Shown: positions 19,624 through 58,036 of the stretch, piece after piece
Layout of the letters: each line of letters opens with the position of its first letter
Numbering within the stretch: position 1 is the stretch's first letter
Assembly (NCBI GenBank): GCA_019058295.1
Contig: JAHPZI010000028.1
Location: forward strand, 128,001-192,000
Source of the DNA: Promethearchaeota archaeon
Lineage (GTDB): Archaea > Asgardarchaeota > Lokiarchaeia > Sigyniarchaeales > SOKP01
Reading direction: 5' to 3'
DNA: 64,000 bases
Position numbers and translations under genes: made by a program
Notes under the pieces: generated by a model
What the model was told of the DNA's origin: nothing
Databases searched by the model: none
What the model saw: only the letters and a program-made list of their open reading frames with translations

Positions 19624-19908
19624 ATGATGACAAAAGAAAAAGGCATTGACAAAGAAAGTCTATTAAGTTATATAAAAAAGGCAATTAAGTTATTATGTGA
19701 AAACAACTTATCTGAAGTGGTAATTTTATCATCTTACAAAATAAATTCTGTTCTAAAGGAGAATTTCGGCGTTAACATAAAAGTCGATAAAATTGGGAGA
19801 ATATTAAGCGGTATAGCTAAGCGAAATCAATTAAAAAGATTAAGTACCTCAATACCTAAATACAAATTACGAATATCTAATTTCTCCAGTTTGAAATTTA
19901 AGATTTGA
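19624..19908 (+). CDS. Small basic hypothetical protein, possibly winged-helix
   Basis: 94 aa, K-rich, helix pattern SSYKINSVL...KIGRILS; overlaps the convergent gene by 11 bp. Confidence 0.6.
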   Translation: MMTKEKGIDKESLLSYIKKAIKLLCENNLSEVVILSSYKINSVLKENFGVNIKVDKIGRILSGIAKRNQLKRLSTSIPKYKLRISNFSSLKFKI

Positions 19909-21229
19909 TTATTTTTTTTAATTTTTCAGTTGCTAAATTCATTTCTTTATAAGTTTCTTTAAGATTATTCAGTTCTGTGTTCAATTTTTCAATTTCATTT
20001 GTAATATTCTGCTCTAAAGATGATATATCCGTTGATATGATATTCTCTATTTTATTAGAGAAATTTTCTGTCTCGTTTGAGACTTCTGTGATGTTTTCTG
20101 AGGTCTTGTTCACTGATTCTTCCAACTTAAAGGTTAAACTGCTAGAATTGCTAATTTTATCTGAAAGGTCTTTTAAATTATTTTCTATGTGATTCATAAT
20201 ATTCTTAAAGTTTGTTTCTACGAGGTTATTTAAATCGTTCAAAATCTCGTCTTTAGATGAAGATAATTGGGTTATTAAATCTCTTTGGGCGTCAATCCGA
20301 ATATCTAAATACATAGATATATTTTCCTTAAAGTTTTCAGCAATTTCATCTAAATTTCTTTTAAACCAGTTTGCTACATTGGAAATTCCGTCAGAGATTT
20401 TACCTTTCATATTACTCGTTGAATTTTTCAGAAGCTCAGATCCGGTTAATGCCCCATCTCTAATATCTTTAGTCCAGGTACCTAATTGATGTTCAAATTG
20501 ATCCATAAATAAATCTGCAAATTTTGAAGTTCCTTCTTGAAATCCTGAAATTATTGGTCCTAGGGCGAGTATAGGTTCTTTTGACATAGGGATCTCTTGG
20601 AGATCATCAAGAGGAGATTCCGCCAATTCATTAATTTCTCTGATTAGGATTGGTGCTTTTTTCTGAGTATCTTCAACTAATTTTTGAACCCATTTAAAAT
20701 AGTCAAGAGTGCTTGGAAATTCCAACTCGTATTCAACTTTATGATATTCATTATTTTTATCGTCGGAAGAATCATTTAATCTATAAATTTCAAAACCTAA
20801 ATTCCCTTCTTTACCCATTAAAGTGTGATCGAAAACAACATAAAAACCATAGGGTTTTTGTTCATTCTGGAAAAAGGAATGGTGGGTTTTGATTGCTGAA
20901 TCAGAAAAAAATAGCCCCCATCCTGGGTGGGATGAGTACCAACCTACTATATTCATTTTTTTGCTAGCATATCTATTTTCAATTTCAGAAAAAGTATTAT
21001 AATCATCTGAATTAAAACCTATTGATATTTTTTTTCCATGAGTGATAGGTATGGCATTAATAAGATCAATATCTTTATCGTTTAATTTACCAATGCAAAT
21101 TCCCATCACCTCAACACTTTCGTCTAATGCTTCATTTCCAAATCTTAAAACATGCGTTATCATGTTTCTAAACGCCTCTTTTTTAATTTTTATCTTTCCT
21201 TCTCCTGAATTTTCTTTTTGTGTCGGCAT
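19898..21229 (-). CDS. Inactive MPN (MPN-) domain plus long coiled-coil/helical tail
   Basis: EVMGICIG...VGWYSSHPGWGLFFSDSA: first Zn-ligand His replaced by Ser, Asp replaced by Ala; heptad-rich C-terminus. Confidence 0.85.
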   Translation of the reverse strand: MPTQKENSGEGKIKIKKEAFRNMITHVLRFGNEALDESVEVMGICIGKLNDKDIDLINAIPITHGKKISIGFNSDDYNTFSEIENRYASKKMNIVGWYSSHPGWGLFFSDSAIKTHHSFFQNEQKPYGFYVVFDHTLMGKEGNLGFEIYRLNDSSDDKNNEYHKVEYELEFPSTLDYFKWVQKLVEDTQKKAPILIREINELAESPLDDLQEIPMSKEPILALGPIISGFQEGTSKFADLFMDQFEHQLGTWTKDIRDGALTGSELLKNSTSNMKGKISDGISNVANWFKRNLDEIAENFKENISMYLDIRIDAQRDLITQLSSSKDEILNDLNNLVETNFKNIMNHIENNLKDLSDKISNSSSLTFKLEESVNKTSENITEVSNETENFSNKIENIISTDISSLEQNITNEIEKLNTELNNLKETYKEMNLATEKLKKIIKS

Positions 21230-21234
21230 TTTAG

Positions 21235-22689
21235 TTATTCACCCCCTCCTTCTAGATTTTTAATTTTATTTAATAAATCCTCCTTCTGAGACTCCATTTC
21301 TTTTAATTTATCATTTAAAGATTTAAAAGTGGCTTCAATTTCAGATGATGATGAATCATAATTCGATAAAAATTCTTGTGTTTCATTACGGTAATCAGTA
21401 AATTTATTTAATATATTAGCTATTTTTTCTTTTAAATTGCTTTCAATTTTTCCACAAAATCCCCTTAATTTTTCTGAAGTTAACCTTTCTAAAGATTTAG
21501 TCTTTTCAGATATTTTTTCTAAAGATAATCTTTGTTGAGCTAAACTTTCTGAAGAGAGTTTATTTTTTTGATTAATTTCTGTCAATTTATTTGAATTTTC
21601 AGCGAAATTTTCACTAATTTTATTTAATAAACCATTGACGTTTTGTTCAAATAATTCATTTATCTGTGTAGGGAGTTCTTCTTTTAATTTTTCAATAAAA
21701 TTTTTTGCAATTTCATTGTTTTTATCAAAATTTTCAAACTGATCACCTATATAGGTCTCAAGATCATCTAGCTTATATTTTAATGAGAATTTAAAATTAT
21801 TCTGAAGCTTATCAATTCCTTTCCTTAAATCATCTTTTAAATCAACTAAATCATCTCTAATTTGAATATTATTTTCCATTATATTTTTTATAATCTCTTG
21901 GCTCCAAGAGTTTAAAAAATTTATTAGTGGTTCAATAGATAATTGTAAAAATTGCGAAATTCCATTATGTAAAGCTGAGAGAATATCTTCTAAATTTAAT
22001 TGGGGCTTAGCCGCTAATAATTCCCTTTTGCTTGGAAAGAAAATCTCGCCGAAAAGATCAGGGGTTTCGTTAATCTCCAAAATTGGGGGTTCTTTTGAGT
22101 GAATACAATTAATTAATTCCATTATTTTAAAGTAATAATCTATACTGTCAGGAGGTTCTACAATAGTTTCTACCTCATGATAATCTGATTTTTGACCCTT
22201 GGACGGATCATCAAGTCTAAAAGTTCTAAAACCTAAATCTCCCTGATTTTCTAAAAAAGTATGATCAAAAACTATGCCTATAGCGCTAGGATTTGGAGTT
22301 TGCCAACCCAGCTGATTTATTTTGTCTACTCCCGAGAAAAAAATGTTTAACCCAGGATGTGAATGGAACCAACCAACACTGAAAAGCCCCTTATCAGCGT
22401 ATTTTTCATCTATTAGAGCAAAAGACACATAATCTTCAGGAGCAAAAGCAACCTCAATCGAACCGCCATGCGAAATTGGCACAGCATCTTCAACAATTAT
22501 ATTTTTAATGCCCCTTTTATTTGGTTCACCTTCAAGGCGTCCAATAAGTATTCCCATTACTTCCTTGTATTGTCTCTGATCTCTTACTCTATTACCAAAT
22601 CGCAATATATGGACGAGCATTTTGTAATAGGCAAGTGGTTTGATAAGGACGGACCTATCGCTCTCTTGATGACGTTTACTCAAATTCAT
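21235..22689 (-). CDS. JAMM/MPN+ metalloprotease plus long coiled-coil/helical tail
   Basis: EVMGILIG...VGWFHSHPGLNIFFSGVD is an intact E-HxH-x7-S-x2-D motif. Confidence 0.9.
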   Translation of the reverse strand: MNLSKRHQESDRSVLIKPLAYYKMLVHILRFGNRVRDQRQYKEVMGILIGRLEGEPNKRGIKNIIVEDAVPISHGGSIEVAFAPEDYVSFALIDEKYADKGLFSVGWFHSHPGLNIFFSGVDKINQLGWQTPNPSAIGIVFDHTFLENQGDLGFRTFRLDDPSKGQKSDYHEVETIVEPPDSIDYYFKIMELINCIHSKEPPILEINETPDLFGEIFFPSKRELLAAKPQLNLEDILSALHNGISQFLQLSIEPLINFLNSWSQEIIKNIMENNIQIRDDLVDLKDDLRKGIDKLQNNFKFSLKYKLDDLETYIGDQFENFDKNNEIAKNFIEKLKEELPTQINELFEQNVNGLLNKISENFAENSNKLTEINQKNKLSSESLAQQRLSLEKISEKTKSLERLTSEKLRGFCGKIESNLKEKIANILNKFTDYRNETQEFLSNYDSSSSEIEATFKSLNDKLKEMESQKEDLLNKIKNLEGGGE

Positions 22690-22795: not shown

Positions 22796-23524
22796 TTAAT
22801 GCTTATGAGGTATTTCGCGACCGCAGTCTGGACAATATTTAGGAATCAAATTTTTACCGCAATAAGGGCAAAATTCTGATGATTTTTCACTAACTTCCTC
22901 TGTCGAAACTACAGCAGATGATTTTTCACTAACTTTTTCTGTCGAAACTTCAGCAGATGCAGGAGTTTCTTGAGGAGTACCTCCTGGAATTGAAGGTAAT
23001 TTTCTTTTTGTTTTTATAGTAGATGAAGCAGATGCCTGTTCTTCTTTTGCTCTTTCAGCAGCCACTCTTTCTTTAAATGCTTTTCGCTGTTCTTCTAACT
23101 TCTCCTCTTGAGTTTGTTCACCTTCTTGTTTCACCCAACCAGGACCCTTAAAAGCACCTTTGATCTCACTTTGAGGTACTTTTTCTAATTCAACTTTTTT
23201 CGTTTCAGCAACAGGTGCAACAGCTCTTTTTTCTTGTTTTTTACTAATTGCTTGTTTTATTAACGCTTGAGTTGTTTTCATAATTTGGTGTGGGTTTATA
23301 TTTGGTAGCGTAATAGTTCGTAGGACCCAGCCAACAATATAATTCTGATTTGGAAAGTCTCCATCTCCCATTTCAGCATCTTTATATACATAAGAATCGA
23401 TTACGTCCTTACCTTTAAGAAGGCGAGACGCCCAGCGTTTATTTATAAGTCCCAGTTGTAATCGATAAGAAGTACCTGAAATTCCCAACTGGGATGATAA
23501 GGGGATGAAACCTTGTTCTGTAAT
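22796..23524 (-). CDS. Hypothetical protein: globular N-domain, low-complexity linker, C-terminal Zn-ribbon; start extended to ATT 23524 (ORF track: TTG 23488)
   Basis: CPYCG...CPDCG; SD AAGGTGA 6 nt before in-frame ATT-ACA-GAA-CAA. Confidence 0.75.
   Translation of the reverse strand: MTEQGFIPLSSQLGISGTSYRLQLGLINKRWASRLLKGKDVIDSYVYKDAEMGDGDFPNQNYIVGWVLRTITLPNINPHQIMKTTQALIKQAISKKQEKRAVAPVAETKKVELEKVPQSEIKGAFKGPGWVKQEGEQTQEEKLEEQRKAFKERVAAERAKEEQASASSTIKTKRKLPSIPGGTPQETPASAEVSTEKVSEKSSAVVSTEEVSEKSSEFCPYCGKNLIPKYCPDCGREIPHKH
22878..22955. repeat. 39-bp in-frame tandem duplication
   Basis: gatgatttttcactaactt...gtcgaaact.cagca twice, encoding SAEVSTEKVSEKS / SAVVSTEEVSEKS. Confidence 0.9.
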
Positions 23525-23686: not shown

Positions 23687-24643
23687 ATGACTGTAATTAT
23701 CCCAAAAAAAGCTTATTTAACTATCGTAGCAGCGTCTGTTAGATTTGCAAATCCTAAGATTCCCTTTGACGATTGGTTAGAAATATATGGTATTTTTACG
23801 GGAAAATCTTCCAAGAATGGTAAGGATTTAATAATTACTGAAGCATATAATATAACACACCAAGTAAAAAGGGAAGAGGATATAATAGACAAGGTATATT
23901 GGTCTGATGAAGATTATATCTCATTTAGTATGATTGATGACGATGCTTTTTCAAGAGGCGAATATACAGTAGGATGGTACCATTCTCATCCTGGTCACAG
24001 AGTAATGATGACTAGTTTAGATATTCGCACTACAGCAACTTATCAACAATATAATCCTCTTGCAGTTTCTCTTGTATTTAATCCACAACGATTAACCAGA
24101 CAAATTGAAGTTCCAGCAAGAAAAGGAGATCCCGAACTAAGATTGGATTGCGATCCCGGTTTTAAAATTTTTAGATTGGGCAATCCTGAAGATGTTGATT
24201 CAAATTACCATGAAGTATATGATTATAAGATTGATGGATTTGAAAGTGAAGAGCAATTAGTAGAATATGCTAAAAAGTTCGCTATAGAAATAACAGATTT
24301 ATTTCCTAAAGATAATGTTGTTGAATCATATAATAATTACGTCAATGATAAATTAAGACAATTAAACTCATTATTGATGGGAACTGAAGATTATTTGAAA
24401 TCATTAGCTCGAAAAGATGAAAAAAGTAGGATCCCTGAAGTGTTAGAAAATCAAAAAAAAGAGATTAATAAATTTGTAGCAGAAACATATGTTAAAATAG
24501 AAAATATGAAAGAATTCCTTGATTATCTCGAATATAAAGAAAAAGATGTTATCATTCCAAAAGTTAAGGACGTCTTATCCAATTGGGATGAAAATATAGC
24601 TAATTTAGATAAGAAATTAGATGAATTATCAAAAAAATTCTAA
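23687..24643 (+). CDS. JAMM/MPN protein with helical C-terminal tail (HSH-x7-T-x2-D variant)
   Basis: WLEIYGIFTG...VGWYHSHPGHRVMMTSLD; shares GFxxFRL...YHEV with the two MPN proteins on the other strand. Confidence 0.85.
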   Translation: MTVIIPKKAYLTIVAASVRFANPKIPFDDWLEIYGIFTGKSSKNGKDLIITEAYNITHQVKREEDIIDKVYWSDEDYISFSMIDDDAFSRGEYTVGWYHSHPGHRVMMTSLDIRTTATYQQYNPLAVSLVFNPQRLTRQIEVPARKGDPELRLDCDPGFKIFRLGNPEDVDSNYHEVYDYKIDGFESEEQLVEYAKKFAIEITDLFPKDNVVESYNNYVNDKLRQLNSLLMGTEDYLKSLARKDEKSRIPEVLENQKKEINKFVAETYVKIENMKEFLDYLEYKEKDVIIPKVKDVLSNWDENIANLDKKLDELSKKF

Positions 24644-24767
24644 ATTACTTAAAATCAGTTTTTTATTCTCAAAATCAGTAGTTTCTAACTTTAAAAAATC
24701 ATAATAATATTTTTAATAATTGGTTTGTACCAAAAATCTTTTAATTCCTTTTATTTTACTACTTACA

Positions 24768-26978
24768 ATGAAAAAGATTAATTTTCCCTTCACAGCGATA
24801 TTAGGACAAGATAAAATGAAGATGGGTTTAATTTTAAACGTTATAGACCCACAAATAGGAGGAGTTCTTTTAACAGGACATCAAGGGACGGGTAAGTCTA
24901 CGGCTGTAAGGTCTTTAGTAGAAGTTATGCCAAAAATAGAAGTTATCGAAGATTGCCAATTTTCTTGTGATCCAGCATCAAATATTGATGATCTTTGTGC
25001 TTCTTGCCGCCAGAAAAAAAAGGAAGATAAATTAAAAACTTATGTACGCAATATGAGAATCGTTAATCTTCCTCTTGGTGTAACAGAAGATATGGTATGT
25101 GGGAGTTTATCAATTGATAAAGTTCTTACAGAAGGAACTTCTGAACTTCATTCAGGCTTATTAGCTAAAGCTAATCGTGGTATTTTATATGTTGATGAAA
25201 TAAATCTTTTACAAGACCATATAGTTGACGTTCTGTTGGATGCCGCAGCGTCAGGGATCAATATAATAGAGCGCGAGGGAATATCAGTTTCTCATCCATC
25301 TCGATTTGTTTTAGTAGGTTCGATGAACCCTGAAGAAGGGGAATTAAGACCACAGATCGCAGATAGGTTAGGTTTAGAAGTTAAAATAAAGGCACCGAGA
25401 GATCCTACATTGCGGGCCGAAATTACGAAAAGAGTAATAGAATTTGACGATAATCCAAAGGATTTTATTGAGAAATATGAAGAAGAGCAAGAAAAATTAA
25501 GGCAAAAAATACTTAATGCGAGAAAGATCATTAGTACGGTTGAAATTCCAGCGCGTATTTACGAATTAGTATCGAAAATTGTTAATGATCTTGGAATTTT
25601 TTCACAAAGAGCAGATATTACATTCATTAGATGTGCTAGGGCGAACGCTGCTTTAAATGGTAGACAGAGGATTGAACAAGAGGATCTCAATGTTGCAATG
25701 GATTTAGTATTCGAACATCGAATAGCGTCATTACATTATGAAATGACACCTAATGAAATAAAAGCGAAAATTGCCGAAGTTTATGGAAAAATTGAAGAAG
25801 CTATTGAAGATCCAGAAGTATATAAATCAAATCCCGAGACTGAAGGACCTTTAAAGCACGATGATACTCCTCAAGAAGAATTTAAGCGACAATCTATTGA
25901 TCCTGATAAAGTGGATGTTGGGGAAACAAAAGAACAAAAATACCCTCCTCCTAAATATCCAGATAAGAAAAAGAGAAAAGCAAAACCAGCAGGAGGTTGG
26001 AAAGTTAAAGATATACCGTTTGAAGAAGCGGATGATTTTAATTTATCAGATGATGATTTTGATATAACATCATTTATTTATAGAATGGAAAAGAAAATGA
26101 CTTCTATTTTAGATAATATTCGCAGAGAACGTAGAGTTTCTGATTATGGAGGTCGGGGAATTGGTCGTAGAATTAAAATAGCATCGTCTCAAAAAGGAAG
26201 GTATGTATCATATCGGACTCCTAGAGGTCAGCGACCAAAAAGTATAGCTTTAGATGCGACAATTAGGAACTACTTAAAAAATATTGTGTACAATCAAACG
26301 GAAATTAGCTTTCCAATTCGATTTAATAAATATGATTTAATGGATAAAATCTATGAATATCGAGCACCATTAGCGCTATTTTTTGTTCTTGACAGTTCTG
26401 CGTCTATGTACTATGTTATTAAACAAATGACTGATGTTATTTTATCTTTACAAAAGGAAGGATATAGAAAAAGAGATAAAATTTGCCTTATAATCTTTAG
26501 AGGCAAAGAGGCAGTTGTCTTGCAGAAACCGACTGTCATTTTTAAATATGCTTTAAATAAATTAAAAAAAATAGAGGGAAAATCATATACACCAATGGCA
26601 GCTGCCTTAAGGAAAGTTATGGATTTAATAAAGGCAGAGAAAATGAAAAATAAAAATATTGTTCCTGTAATTTTTATTTGTTCAGACTGTGGTGCTAATA
26701 TTTCTGCGAAATATCCTGAGTTAATTGCTCAAATTGAAAGTGATTATGCTATAATTATTCAGGAATTAAAAGAATTGACCAAAAAGCTTTCAAAACAAAA
26801 AGTTCATATAGTTGTGTTAGAACCAAAAAAATCATACGCAACGCAGGCACTAGGTGTACATCCATATTCTGCTGATAAAATTAAGAAAAATTTCAAAAGG
26901 TATGGAGGAGCTGAGATATATAAATTTGATCGATATAATCCTTCATCGCTAATTTTAGAATTAAAAAAGATTCTTTAA
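24768..26978 (+). CDS. AAA+ ATPase-VWA fusion of the Mg/Co-chelatase ChlI/ChlD family (ORF track start 24720)
   Basis: FPFTAILGQ, GHQGTGKST, GLLAKANRGILYVDEINLL, NPEEGELRPQ; VWA MIDAS DSSAS...TP...SD. Confidence 0.9.
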   Translation: MKKINFPFTAILGQDKMKMGLILNVIDPQIGGVLLTGHQGTGKSTAVRSLVEVMPKIEVIEDCQFSCDPASNIDDLCASCRQKKKEDKLKTYVRNMRIVNLPLGVTEDMVCGSLSIDKVLTEGTSELHSGLLAKANRGILYVDEINLLQDHIVDVLLDAAASGINIIEREGISVSHPSRFVLVGSMNPEEGELRPQIADRLGLEVKIKAPRDPTLRAEITKRVIEFDDNPKDFIEKYEEEQEKLRQKILNARKIISTVEIPARIYELVSKIVNDLGIFSQRADITFIRCARANAALNGRQRIEQEDLNVAMDLVFEHRIASLHYEMTPNEIKAKIAEVYGKIEEAIEDPEVYKSNPETEGPLKHDDTPQEEFKRQSIDPDKVDVGETKEQKYPPPKYPDKKKRKAKPAGGWKVKDIPFEEADDFNLSDDDFDITSFIYRMEKKMTSILDNIRRERRVSDYGGRGIGRRIKIASSQKGRYVSYRTPRGQRPKSIALDATIRNYLKNIVYNQTEISFPIRFNKYDLMDKIYEYRAPLALFFVLDSSASMYYVIKQMTDVILSLQKEGYRKRDKICLIIFRGKEAVVLQKPTVIFKYALNKLKKIEGKSYTPMAAALRKVMDLIKAEKMKNKNIVPVIFICSDCGANISAKYPELIAQIESDYAIIIQELKELTKKLSKQKVHIVVLEPKKSYATQALGVHPYSADKIKKNFKRYGGAEIYKFDRYNPSSLILELKKIL

Positions 26979-54809: not shown

Positions 54810-55067
54810 ATGAGAATCTCTGTGGAAGATAGTCGGACAGGCAAGCTGATTAAGCTCGATGTAAAAGAACATCATCAGATTGAACGAATTGTAGACATTA
54901 TCGTCAAACATATGGGGATTATTAGCACAGAACAACGCTCATATACTTTAGTTTTGAACGATCAGGAATTGCCTACAACCATAACAATAGAAGATGCTAT
55001 ACACAAATATGGCTTAAAGGAAAATGACAAATTAGCCTTATGGGCTAGAGTAGTTGGGGGCTTTTAA
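54810..55067 (+). CDS. Ubiquitin-like modifier precursor (C-terminal GG-F)
   Basis: Beta-grasp pattern MRISV...GKLIKLDV...YGLKENDKLAL, ending ARVVGGF; adjacent to E2, E1 and JAMM genes. Confidence 0.9.
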   Translation: MRISVEDSRTGKLIKLDVKEHHQIERIVDIIVKHMGIISTEQRSYTLVLNDQELPTTITIEDAIHKYGLKENDKLALWARVVGGF

Positions 55068-55627
55068 TCGTCGATTATAACAATATCGTCATCTGCCTCT
55101 TCTGCTTCTGCTTTTTCAAAATCATACTTTTCTTTAAGATCTGCCATCGTATTATGTTTGAAAAATTCAGTAGCCTCTAAACAAATAGGATAATTTAAAG
55201 GATCATCTGGATTTGGATTTTCTACGAGTAGTTTTAGTGCTTTTACAGTGGTATCCATATCAGATAAGAGAGACCATTTCTTTAAGACATTAAGGCAAAT
55301 GTATCCCGTTCCAGTTTCTCCAGAACCTAATTCGACCGGATGGATATTTGGGTGGAATATAGGGGAATACCAAGCAAAATCTATGCCTCCTGGATAGGGG
55401 AAGTTTCGATTAAGCTTCAGCATAATTTTATGATTCTTTTGAGGGATTAATTCCAAGCTTTGCGATCCCTCCTTTAAAACAAAGCCTAACGATTTTATAT
55501 TTACAATTAATTCAACTGAGTTTTCCTTGCGAATTATACTATTATCCTCAAGAACGTTTAAACGTTTTAAAGACTCCAATTCATTTTCGATACGGTCTTT
55601 CCAAATTTCAAGTGGAAGCTCTGGCAT
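55064..55627 (-). CDS. Ubiquitin-conjugating enzyme E2 (UBC fold)
   Basis: RIENEL, FPYP, PIFHPNI...GYICLNVL, W, NPNPDDPLN; acidic tail. Confidence 0.93.
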   Translation of the reverse strand: MPELPLEIWKDRIENELESLKRLNVLEDNSIIRKENSVELIVNIKSLGFVLKEGSQSLELIPQKNHKIMLKLNRNFPYPGGIDFAWYSPIFHPNIHPVELGSGETGTGYICLNVLKKWSLLSDMDTTVKALKLLVENPNPDDPLNYPICLEATEFFKHNTMADLKEKYDFEKAEAEEADDDIVIIDD

Positions 55628-55706
55628 TTCTAAACCCGTTTATTTAATTATAAATTTTATATACCAATACTAATATTTATAACTTTGTTCATAACCATAT
55701 AAGAAT

Positions 55707-56588
55707 TTATTTTTTATTAAAACTGCAGATCCAACACTTAGGATCTTTTCTTTTTTCTATTATATCAAATTTATTTGTGAGCCCATTGTAATTTAGTTGT
55801 TTATTTATAAGAGGTTCTCCTATATTTGGATGCCATTTTCCATGTTCTTTGAAATAATCTATTCCTAAGACAAATTTTAATACCTGTTGTGTTTGAATTC
55901 CACCAATTATAGCGGTAGTAGTAATTATTGTTGCCATTTTTCCCATTGACTCACCATTTTCGGATTTTATTTCTTGTCCAGTACAGGAAAACTTTTTCCA
56001 CATCAAATTTAAATCAGCACTAGTTATTCCACATTGTAAACAAGCTGCATTTTCAACTCCTGAATATACAGCTTGTACAGAACCAAAAAACTCATCGATA
56101 CCACTGTCAATAAAAGGAATACCATAATAATAGGCATAATTATTTGCTTGAAGTCGGGCTTCGATATTATCGAGACATGAACAGACAACATCAGACTGTT
56201 TATAAAGATTTTTATCAATATCATTTAAATCCTGCTTTAATGCAACAATTTCTACCTCTGAATTTAAATTTTCGCAGGCTTCTTTAACAACATCAACTTT
56301 ATATTTATTTTCAATTGTACATTCCATGTTAAATAATACACACCGATTAAGATTTGATTTTTCAATAATATCATAATCGATTAAAATAATTTTTCTAATC
56401 CCAGTAAGTACTAGATTTTTAATTAATTCATTTCCAGTGGCACCAGCACCCACAACCATAATCGTTGCATTCGATATTTTATTTTGATCCCATCCAGGGA
56501 TTCGTTTTTGACGATCGTAAATATCCTCATCTATCGAATCTAATCCTAATACTTTATAATCTTTATTAATATCTTTTTTTCTAGTCAT
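55707..56588 (-). CDS. Ubiquitin-activating enzyme E1 (ThiF/Uba family)
   Basis: YDRQ, VVGAGATGNE, DYDIIEKSNLNR, CLDNIEAR, CLQC...CWIC Zn site, putative catalytic Cys in FSCTG. Confidence 0.93.
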   Translation of the reverse strand: MTRKKDINKDYKVLGLDSIDEDIYDRQKRIPGWDQNKISNATIMVVGAGATGNELIKNLVLTGIRKIILIDYDIIEKSNLNRCVLFNMECTIENKYKVDVVKEACENLNSEVEIVALKQDLNDIDKNLYKQSDVVCSCLDNIEARLQANNYAYYYGIPFIDSGIDEFFGSVQAVYSGVENAACLQCGITSADLNLMWKKFSCTGQEIKSENGESMGKMATIITTTAIIGGIQTQQVLKFVLGIDYFKEHGKWHPNIGEPLINKQLNYNGLTNKFDIIEKRKDPKCWICSFNKK

Positions 56589-56612
56589 TTTTGTTATGAG
56601 CCAATAAATTAT

Positions 56613-57104
56613 TCATTTTGGGGAAATAATAGCAAAACTTATTGGTTTGTATCCATTTTCAGAATTATTATCAAGACTAAAAAATTTATAATATTTTTTT
56701 ACGGGATCCACGACTAGAGCTACTTGATACGACTCAGGAAAGAAAAATCTCTGAGTTTCCACATCTGTCGAACTCAAGAAACAGCCAAAATCGGGATGTG
56801 AGTGCCACCACCCAACTATTCTTAAGTCTTCATTATTTCTTTTACTTTTTAACTTCTGAAATTTTTTTTCGTATTTACCCGCAGTTCCTTCTATTTGTGT
56901 CGTTGAATATTTATGGCTATGGACAGCACCATTAATAAAAAGTTGATTTTCAATGACAACATAAATTATATCATTCCATTTTAAAATGTTCCCAATTAAG
57001 TAGCCAAAAATTTCTAATTCGTTTTTTGTACATAATTTTTTAATGTTATTTAAAACAGCTTCTTCCATATATACAGGGAATACAAAATTTTCGTCAATTG
57101 TCAT
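56613..57104 (-). CDS. Rpn11-like JAMM isopeptidase
   Basis: LEIFGYLIG...VGWWHSHPDFGCFLSSTD, ALVVDP. Confidence 0.93.
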   Translation of the reverse strand: MTIDENFVFPVYMEEAVLNNIKKLCTKNELEIFGYLIGNILKWNDIIYVVIENQLFINGAVHSHKYSTTQIEGTAGKYEKKFQKLKSKRNNEDLRIVGWWHSHPDFGCFLSSTDVETQRFFFPESYQVALVVDPVKKYYKFFSLDNNSENGYKPISFAIISPK

Positions 57105-58036
57105 TTTTCATTTTGCCTTGCTTTTAATTTCTCTAAGACTGAAATCTTTAACATTTCAGTAAATATCGAATAGATTTTTTCTTTTGAGTCTTCTTTAATC
57201 GCTGAGAATCCATATGTTTTTATCTCAAAGGCTTTTTCAATTTTATCAGGTTCAAACGCAGAATCCTTTAAATCTTGAAAATTTGCTATAATATAAAAAT
57301 CGGCTTTCTTAACTAATGGTCTCAATCGGTTAAAAAGACTCCTAGTTCTACCCAAGTTACTAGCTGCTGAATTAGATACAATACAAATAATTTCGACGGT
57401 GTCTAATAATTTCCTATAAAGTTTTGATTTATTTACCAATTCTTCTAAATCTATTTCTCTTAATTTAAATTGTTTTAAATCTTCTACACCTGATACTGCT
57501 ATAAGCTTCTCAATTATTTCATTTAAATCCTCATCCAATTCAAGGACTGTCTGACCGGGGAATAAATCCATTATTGTAGACTTCCCTACGCCAATCTCAC
57601 CAATTAATAATATTTTCGGAGGTATAAATATATGTTCTTCGATGAAGTCATCAAAATTGTTGAAAGTTGAAACATTTCCGTCAAAATTTTTTAATAATTT
57701 ACTGTATCTTTTTAAAAATTCAGATTTCATTAGTTCTACTTTAGGTCTAGCCTCTTCTTCTAAGTCGTCTATATCGGTAACAACAATAAACATACAACCA
57801 AATTCATCATCATAAGAATATATAAAATTGAAGTTTCTAAAGTTTAGAGCCTTAATTTCGCCCCCTTTTATTTCTTGTGCAAAACTGCTAATTGCTGTAA
57901 GAAAACCACTAATTAAATCGTCATCAGCTTCTAAATCACTGGAGCTCTTTCCAAAAAAATTTTTAGAATAACACAAAATGCCTCCTGCCGCGATAATAAG
58001 AACCCTAGAGATCATTTTTATATCCTTTTTTTCCAC
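57101..58036 (-). CDS. Longin-like domain fused to a Ras-superfamily small GTPase domain with degenerate G3/G4 (start GTG 58036 or downstream ATG, MISRV)
   Basis: IIAAGGILCYSKNF...DDDLISGFLTAISSFAQEI (longin-like); GEIGVGKST, IDLEE, ANFQD, FSAI. Confidence 0.8.
   Translation of the reverse strand: MEKKDIKMISRVLIIAAGGILCYSKNFFGKSSSDLEADDDLISGFLTAISSFAQEIKGGEIKALNFRNFNFIYSYDDEFGCMFIVVTDIDDLEEEARPKVELMKSEFLKRYSKLLKNFDGNVSTFNNFDDFIEEHIFIPPKILLIGEIGVGKSTIMDLFPGQTVLELDEDLNEIIEKLIAVSGVEDLKQFKLREIDLEELVNKSKLYRKLLDTVEIICIVSNSAASNLGRTRSLFNRLRPLVKKADFYIIANFQDLKDSAFEPDKIEKAFEIKTYGFSAIKEDSKEKIYSIFTEMLKISVLEKLKARQNEK

Follow-up and report, generated by a model that had tools for sequence, protein, structure and literature searches.

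Recurrent loss of the catalytic site in one member of an archaeal tandem pair of JAMM genes with predicted long helical stalks

In the eukaryotic BRISC and BRCA1-A complexes, the MPN+ enzyme BRCC36 is joined to an MPN− paralogue, KIAA0157/ABRO1 or Abraxas, with helices following the MPN domains of both (PMC4579573), and active/inactive pairing on an MPN fold of the Rpn11/CSN5 type is likewise seen in Rpn11–Rpn8 of the proteasome lid, CSN5–CSN6 of the COP9 signalosome (CSN) and eIF3h–eIF3f. These dead partners of eukaryotes are ancient and fixed, so their origin cannot be watched. In archaea, CsRpn11 of Caldiarchaeum subterraneum has an intact JAMM site and is short, active alone and encoded next to a ubiquitin–E1–E2–E3 operon, and a heterodimer of an enzyme with an inactive homologue was stated in 2018 not to be known there (PMC6043591). 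Our search of the literature, with most subscription journals outside its coverage, found no later paper on an Asgard MPN+/MPN− pair. Here we analyzed a stretch of 64,000 nucleotides (the window) from a Promethearchaeota archaeon, of the Loki-type Asgard archaea (contig JAHPZI010000028.1, positions 128,001 to 192,000), which holds two adjacent genes, A and B, encoding an intact and a degenerate JAMM protein with long tails. The two are tandem paralogues and tightly coupled; the motif of A is invariant among the relatives, and that of B has been lost repeatedly with retention of the gene. On balance we favor the view that A and B form a heterodimer that was originally active/active, that its B subunit was repeatedly turned into a pseudoenzyme, and that it is convergent with the eukaryotic pairs.

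An earlier note on this DNA had described two paralogous genes 5 bp apart, one with an intact JAMM motif and the other without two zinc ligands. Coordinates, strand and gap all proved exact: B starts 5 bp past the stop codon of A, A carries E43/H109/H111/S119/D122, and B has S99 and A112 in place of the first His and the Asp. Each gives a Pfam JAB match (E 1.6e-10 for A and 2.2e-15 for B), the match of A lying above the cut-off and agreeing with its AlphaFold2 model and PDB matches in indicating the MPN fold, and the window copy of B has this fold without two of its three zinc ligands. In JAMM chemistry the zinc is bound by two His and one Asp, and water is delivered by a Glu (PMC4579573). Because two of the three ligands are gone, the window copy of B should be catalytically inactive; A, judging from its family membership, is a predicted zinc isopeptidase of the JAMM/MPN+ family. 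The paralogy extends over the full length (27% identity over 461 columns, E 4e-53), and the tails alone align with an HHalign probability of 99% and more than 120 columns free of any A-versus-B gap. The shared linker described earlier exists, but most of it is the final strands and helix 4 after the MPN core, and the rest a loop modeled with low confidence.

A precedes B in all 65 loci that hold both, and the gap between them is −19 to +17 bp in 63 of these; one other gap is 57 bp. This conserved order and near-zero spacing span three families, f1, f2 and f31. Words resembling a Shine-Dalgarno (SD) sequence stand ahead of B in 50 of 67 genomes, a raw count without shuffle control. The tail of A was found in 125 of 134 genomes of the window's family, in the single genome of f31 and in 4 of 14 of f2, whereas none of 11 genomes of other orders in the class (incomplete genomes, searched with one query) and neither of the complete 4.4-Mb and 6.0-Mb f2 genomes gave a match; among the genomes searched, it is confined to the window's order. 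We also looked for fused A–B or other long forms (777–2215 aa) and found none, which is weak evidence. A 923-aa frame in an f2 genome (G308) was rejected as a fused form because start codons split it into separate open reading frames.

The active sites of the two proteins have had different fates. That of A is intact in all 65 scoreable genomes and in 113 of 114 database homologues. That of B is intact in 24 of 67 genomes (canonical in 20, Thr in place of Ser in 4) and in 57 of 118 database homologues, and in the other 43 genomes it is broken by 16 different residue combinations: the Glu is changed to Gln in 12 genomes and the second His to Arg in 8, the first His is replaced by Ser, Leu, Ile, Val or Cys, and the Asp by Ala, Gly, Glu, Thr, His or Asn. 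In five database B proteins only the Asp is lost, which suggests stepwise loss of ligands in the window's lineage. At the other extreme, B of G165 (f2) has lost all five catalytic residues, yet it keeps 422 aa and overlaps A.

We mapped these states by parsimony on a quick-search B tree and on an A tree, which is independent of the columns of B; the two trees are congruent. Both require six state changes, 4–5 of them forced by strong branches; on the A tree the forced minimum is 5–6 changes, and reading it without regain gives 8–11 separate losses in B, the range being set by two open forks. Three outgroup tandems, all in f2 (G307, G308 and G313), have an intact B; the intact state is therefore ancestral, and B began active. 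We reject a single ancient inactivation in view of the repeated losses on the trees together with the intact outgroup copies. The ligand loss is thus not fixed across the B group, and the MPN− state of B, as read from these sequences, is young and recurrent, unlike the fixed state of Rpn8, CSN6 and Abraxas; Abraxas and ABRO1 are fixed pseudoenzymes, whereas B is intact in a third of genomes. The earlier note would have taken ligand loss that is not conserved in orthologues as a sign of simple decay. The loss indeed varies, but because B is under purifying selection and its losses are repeated and different, decay does not follow.

Selection on B was estimated from the ratio of nonsynonymous to synonymous substitution rates (dN/dS, NG86) in 18 genome pairs involving an inactive B, pairs that are not independent of each other. 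The ratio was 0.08–0.27 in the MPN region of B and 0.11–0.55 in its tail, compared with 0–0.15 in the MPN region of A. The frame of B is full-length at every locus not cut by a contig end, and B is kept by purifying selection rather than being a pseudogene. Among 18 representatives of the inactive lineages, conservation of B was highest in helix 1 (0.68) and helix 4 (0.64), above the JAMM segment (0.57) and Ins-1 (0.54); in A of the same representatives it was 0.84 for the JAMM segment, 0.83 for Ins-1 and 0.59 for helix 4. Since the BRCC36–KIAA0157 interface is centered on helix 1 (PMC4579573), as the contact of the heads in the proposed A:B pair would be, and the CsRpn11 crystal dimer is formed by helices 1 and 4 (PMC6043591), this pattern fits a structural role of B.

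AlphaFold2 models of both proteins show an MPN head joined by a linker of low confidence to a single long helix of about 215–230 residues (pLDDT, the predicted local distance difference test, 77 for A and 75 for B; pTM, the predicted template modeling score, 0.43–0.44). The helix of more than 200 residues that the earlier note had foreseen is therefore predicted in both, but its description as heptad-rich was mostly wrong. Across 66 orthologues the hydrophobic period is 3.60–3.70 with an autocorrelation peak at 11, as expected of a straight helix or of hendecads; there is little power at 3.5 and a heptad period is confined to A 420–480, so we reject heptad tails. As modeled, the tails are hendecad stalks of 32–37 nm and not heptad bundles, and here the proposed architecture of eukaryotic deubiquitinase heterodimers does not hold, because the lid, CSN and BRISC have short bundles. 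BRCC36 pairs form a bundle of two short helices per chain, as against one hendecad helix of ~220 aa in A and B. The E–G peripheral stalk of A/V-type ATPases is a heterodimeric, right-handed hendecad coiled-coil stalk; the tails of A and B resemble it as an analogy of geometry, and we claim no homology. An ESM Atlas search with the tail returned only the cluster of the A/B family itself.

The complex was predicted in one run set on the full-length A+B pair with alignments, together with three controls. The pair scored 0.57 and the best control 0.00. The mark set for this score is reached by 58 of 80 solved complexes and by 2 of 110 mismatched pairs, and at 0.60 or below by 7 of the 80 solved complexes and by both passing mismatches. 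The runs share at least 53% of contacts and the partner pLDDT is at least 67. Because solved MPN dimers exist, the pass may reflect memory of them. The enzyme/pseudoenzyme deubiquitinase complex that the earlier note had proposed is thus favored by synteny, tight coupling, selection on B and this weak prediction, but its dead partner is not a fixed feature.

We propose that one long-stalked JAMM protease was duplicated in tandem within the window archaeon's order, both copies being catalytically intact at first. A and B would be co-translated through translational coupling and would form a heterodimer whose MPN heads touch via helices 1 and 4, and whose homologous hendecad tails lie side by side and in register as a stalk of ~35 nm. 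A, as a member of its family, would remove a ubiquitin-like tag from conjugates, and B would be a structural, possibly activating or tag-binding partner and not an enzyme. Because B would be needed as a partner rather than as an enzyme, its catalytic residues would drift, hence the 8–11 losses, under purifying selection that holds its fold, interface helices and tail. Such a pair would work like BRCC36–ABRO1 or Rpn11–Rpn8 but would have evolved separately; it would be a lineage-specific parallel to the eukaryotic pairs of enzyme and dead partner, probably not their ancestor, the complex itself being predicted. With intact, half-broken and fully broken partners beside an always-intact enzyme, the family makes the origin and purpose of a pseudo-deubiquitinase partner testable. 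A more demanding form of this proposal, in which A needs B and the two are an obligate archaeal deubiquitinase heterodimer, seems to us somewhat doubtful; the genomes would then hold every stage from two active to one dead subunit (an intact site, a Glu-to-Gln trap, and sites missing one, two or all ligands), a path taken at least 8 times. It is in this form that the partner may be required for activity, as in the BRCC36 pairs. If A does need B, heterodimerization would predictably lead to the MPN+/MPN− asymmetry seen in the lid, CSN and BRISC, and natural variants could be used to reconstruct the origin of that asymmetry in vitro.

Several points weigh against the heterodimer proposal. The complex is a predicted one; its prediction covered the A+B pair, and tails in register would suit A:A and B:B equally. 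The linker has a pLDDT below 50 and the global pTM is low in both models. In G144, five genes (6 kb) are inserted between A and B. One third of the B copies look fully active, and the role of B therefore cannot depend on being dead. The loss counts come from quickly searched trees in which some forks are open and some branches long, and the genomes, being related, are not independent of one another.

Similar observations could be expected if B were a redundant duplicate in decay, because its ligand loss varies among orthologues and its MPN region evolves faster than that of A (46% versus 64% mean identity). This has almost nothing left to recommend it: a dN/dS far below 1 already largely refutes it, the frames are full-length, and even the fully degenerate G165 copy persists with its overlap of A. 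It is also conceivable, though unlikely, that B is a non-catalytic protein binding ubiquitin-like modifiers, or a scaffold, that works apart from A as a homodimer or with another partner, the operon reflecting shared regulation after duplication. Neither the selection on B nor its repeated catalytic loss requires B to touch A, the tails could pair with themselves, the two genes lie apart in G144, and the twelve genomes with a Glu-to-Gln B keep all zinc ligands and resemble a substrate trap; but the fixed order and near-zero spacing across f1, f2 and f31, the congruent trees, the lack of any A seen with a lost site and the weakly positive complex score speak for the A:B pair. More improbable still is that the stalks carry the main function, with amphipathic hendecad helices forming a higher-order bundle, filament or lipid-binding belt that shows few active heads, half of the heads being redundant. 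The hydrophobic period of 3.6–3.7 would suit such an assembly, as would the match of tail profiles to apolipoprotein A-IV and A-I and MCP coiled coils (E 1e-6 to 3e-8; Pfam Apolipoprotein below cut-off). However, amphipathic helices in general give matches of this kind, the tails carry an acidic net charge (−11 and −12) and no hydrophobic anchor, and they are less conserved than the heads (29–34% versus 46–64% mean identity).

A further possibility is that the pair is orthologous to Rpn11/Rpn8, CSN5/CSN6 or BRCC36/Abraxas, or keeps their ancestral state. The closest solved relatives of both profiles are the MPN+ proteins CsRpn11, Rpn11, CSN5 and BRCC36, the best PDB sequence match of A being CsRpn11 (E 1.6e-8), and a Foldseek comparison places the fold with those of Rpn11 and CSN5 (E 3.5e-12 to Rpn11). 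We built a quick-search tree from 108 MPN-domain rows, leaving out long rows such as the exceptionally long G165 B; its eukaryotic rows are Rpn11 and CSN5 (Rpn8, CSN6, Abraxas, eIF3f and BRCC36 not among them). In this tree A and B group as sisters, together with a single short paralogue (SH-aLRT, a Shimodaira–Hasegawa-like likelihood ratio test, 95), and the 56-row clade that contains them is restricted to Promethearchaeia (99); Rpn11 and CSN5 cluster with short JAMMs from other Asgard groups (96). Forcing A together with Rpn11 and CSN5 lowers the log-likelihood by 26.6 and is not rejected by the approximately unbiased (AU) test (p-AU 0.132, 169 columns); this, and a tree without eukaryotic MPN− sequences, leaves orthology some room. 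We nevertheless regard it as very improbable. A and B are related to each other through head, linker and tail alike; B is ancestrally intact; and the top 60 PDB sequence matches of both profiles include no Rpn8, CSN6 or Abraxas, those of B also no eIF3f. RPN11_C, CSN5_C, BRCC36_C and MitMem_reg gave no match to the tails at E 0.01, a search in which true Rpn11 and CSN5 sequences do match their tail families. Among the genomes searched the tail was found in the window's order only, and the other Asgard classes sampled carry JAMMs of other clades. The locus also has no PCI genes, another difference from the lid, CSN and eIF3 with their six PCI subunits (the PCI-like winged-helix hits of this 79% complete genome, in proteins of 792, 1480 and 989 aa at L213–L217 on contigs C25, C21 and C9, are unlinked, and repeated in the first two), and no linked BRCC45 or MERIT40 genes were seen. 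The earlier note had left the choice between relatedness and convergence open; convergence is now favored, though not proven by the tree, because of the full-length homology of A and B, the intact ancestor and the narrow range. The pair probably has no bearing on the ancestry of the eukaryotic complexes.

As for substrates, the window genome (3.2 Mb, 79% complete) has six JAB/MPN genes: A, B, the neighboring gene C, one on contig C12, one on C21, and one in the window (56613–57104) adjoining genes for a ubiquitin-like protein (Ubl), an E2 and an E1. This Ubl, at 54810, ends in GG plus one residue and is convergent on the operon of E2, E1, short JAMM and GTPase-like genes (54810–58036); a second Ubl–E1–E2–JAMM operon lies on C12, a contig with two Ubls. 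A and B are linked to neither. The 54810 Ubl, which the earlier note had put forward as a test substrate, is not an obvious one for A because it adjoins its own E2, E1 and JAMM, and we reject a link to the pair on the same ground.

Features of genes A and B and of their surroundings (positions in the window)
Feature	Position	Strand	Description
Gene A	21235..22689	(-)	484 aa; MPN+/JAMM domain (~residues 12-198), low-confidence linker, long helical tail
Gene A zinc-binding motif	22324..22365	(-)	H109-x-H111-x7-S119-x2-D122, from sequence
Gene A catalytic E43	22561-22563	(-)	From sequence
Gene A helical tail	21250..21990	(-)	Residues 234-480; hendecad, but last 60 residues heptad; ~37 nm if extended
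SD-like word GGGGGTGA	21239..21246	(-)	Within final codons of A, 9 nt ahead of ATG of B
Gene B	19898..21229	(-)	443 aa; MPN domain (JAMM site degenerate), LQEIP motif specific to B, long helical tail
Gene B degenerate motif	20894..20935	(-)	S99 replaces His (20933-20935), A112 replaces Asp (20894-20896); E40, H101, S109 retained
Gene B helical tail	19904..20551	(-)	Residues 227-442; hendecad; ~32 nm if extended; in register with A tail
Gene U	22796..23524	(-)	Upstream of A; uncharacterized N-terminal domain, charged linker, zinc ribbon; 61/68 loci
Gene C	23687..24643	(+)	Divergent third JAMM, 318 aa, H-x-H-x7-T-x2-D; separate paralogue clade
Small open reading frame	19624..19908	(+)	94 aa; convergent, overlaps 3' end of B; conserved in 60/68 loci
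ChlI/ChlD-type AAA+/vWA fusion	24720-26978	(+)	After gene C in 42/68 loci; below all NCBIfam cut-offs

Gene U is a possible third member of the operon. Its probable start, judged from the orthologue alignment and an SD sequence, is the ATT at 23524 behind AAGGTGA, and the G144 orthologue has ATG at this position. A short tandem repeat precedes the zinc ribbon, which matches Pfam DZR below the cut-off. An ESM Atlas search with U returned nothing, and no NCBIfam family covers A, B or U. A 795-aa protein without Pfam or NCBIfam match (L039:8615–11002) clusters with the neighbors in 56 of 68 loci, not adjoining the pair in the window.

In eight gene C orthologues (L043, L046, L048, L049, L051, L052, L054 and L059) an insert of 30–32 nt splits the JAMM motif; the window copy has none. 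The insert folds as a bulge-helix-bulge, and its removal at the canonical cut sites restores both an open frame and the orthologous motif in 8 of 8 cases, making it a candidate tRNA-type mRNA intron.

Other degenerate or enlarged MPN genes were seen in related genomes. G307 holds a second A–B tandem (L220) with a degenerate B, and just upstream of its intact A–B pair lie, in tandem, two strongly diverged genes with MPN-like N-termini of 203 and 246 aa (L219:1447–5671). In G240 (family f3), one MPN gene is fully degenerate and sits 2.8 kb away from an intact JAMM of the C type (L212:502–1398 and L212:4181–5113). The degenerate gene falls in the same clade as that JAMM, with a very long branch; the two may be a further MPN+/MPN− pair of independent origin. 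Promethearchaeia also carry JAMM paralogues of 470–590 aa (L105, L108, L110–L113 and L117; L107, L109 and L155), some with TPR-like tails or a C-terminal MPN domain, a class-specific expansion of the JAMM family.

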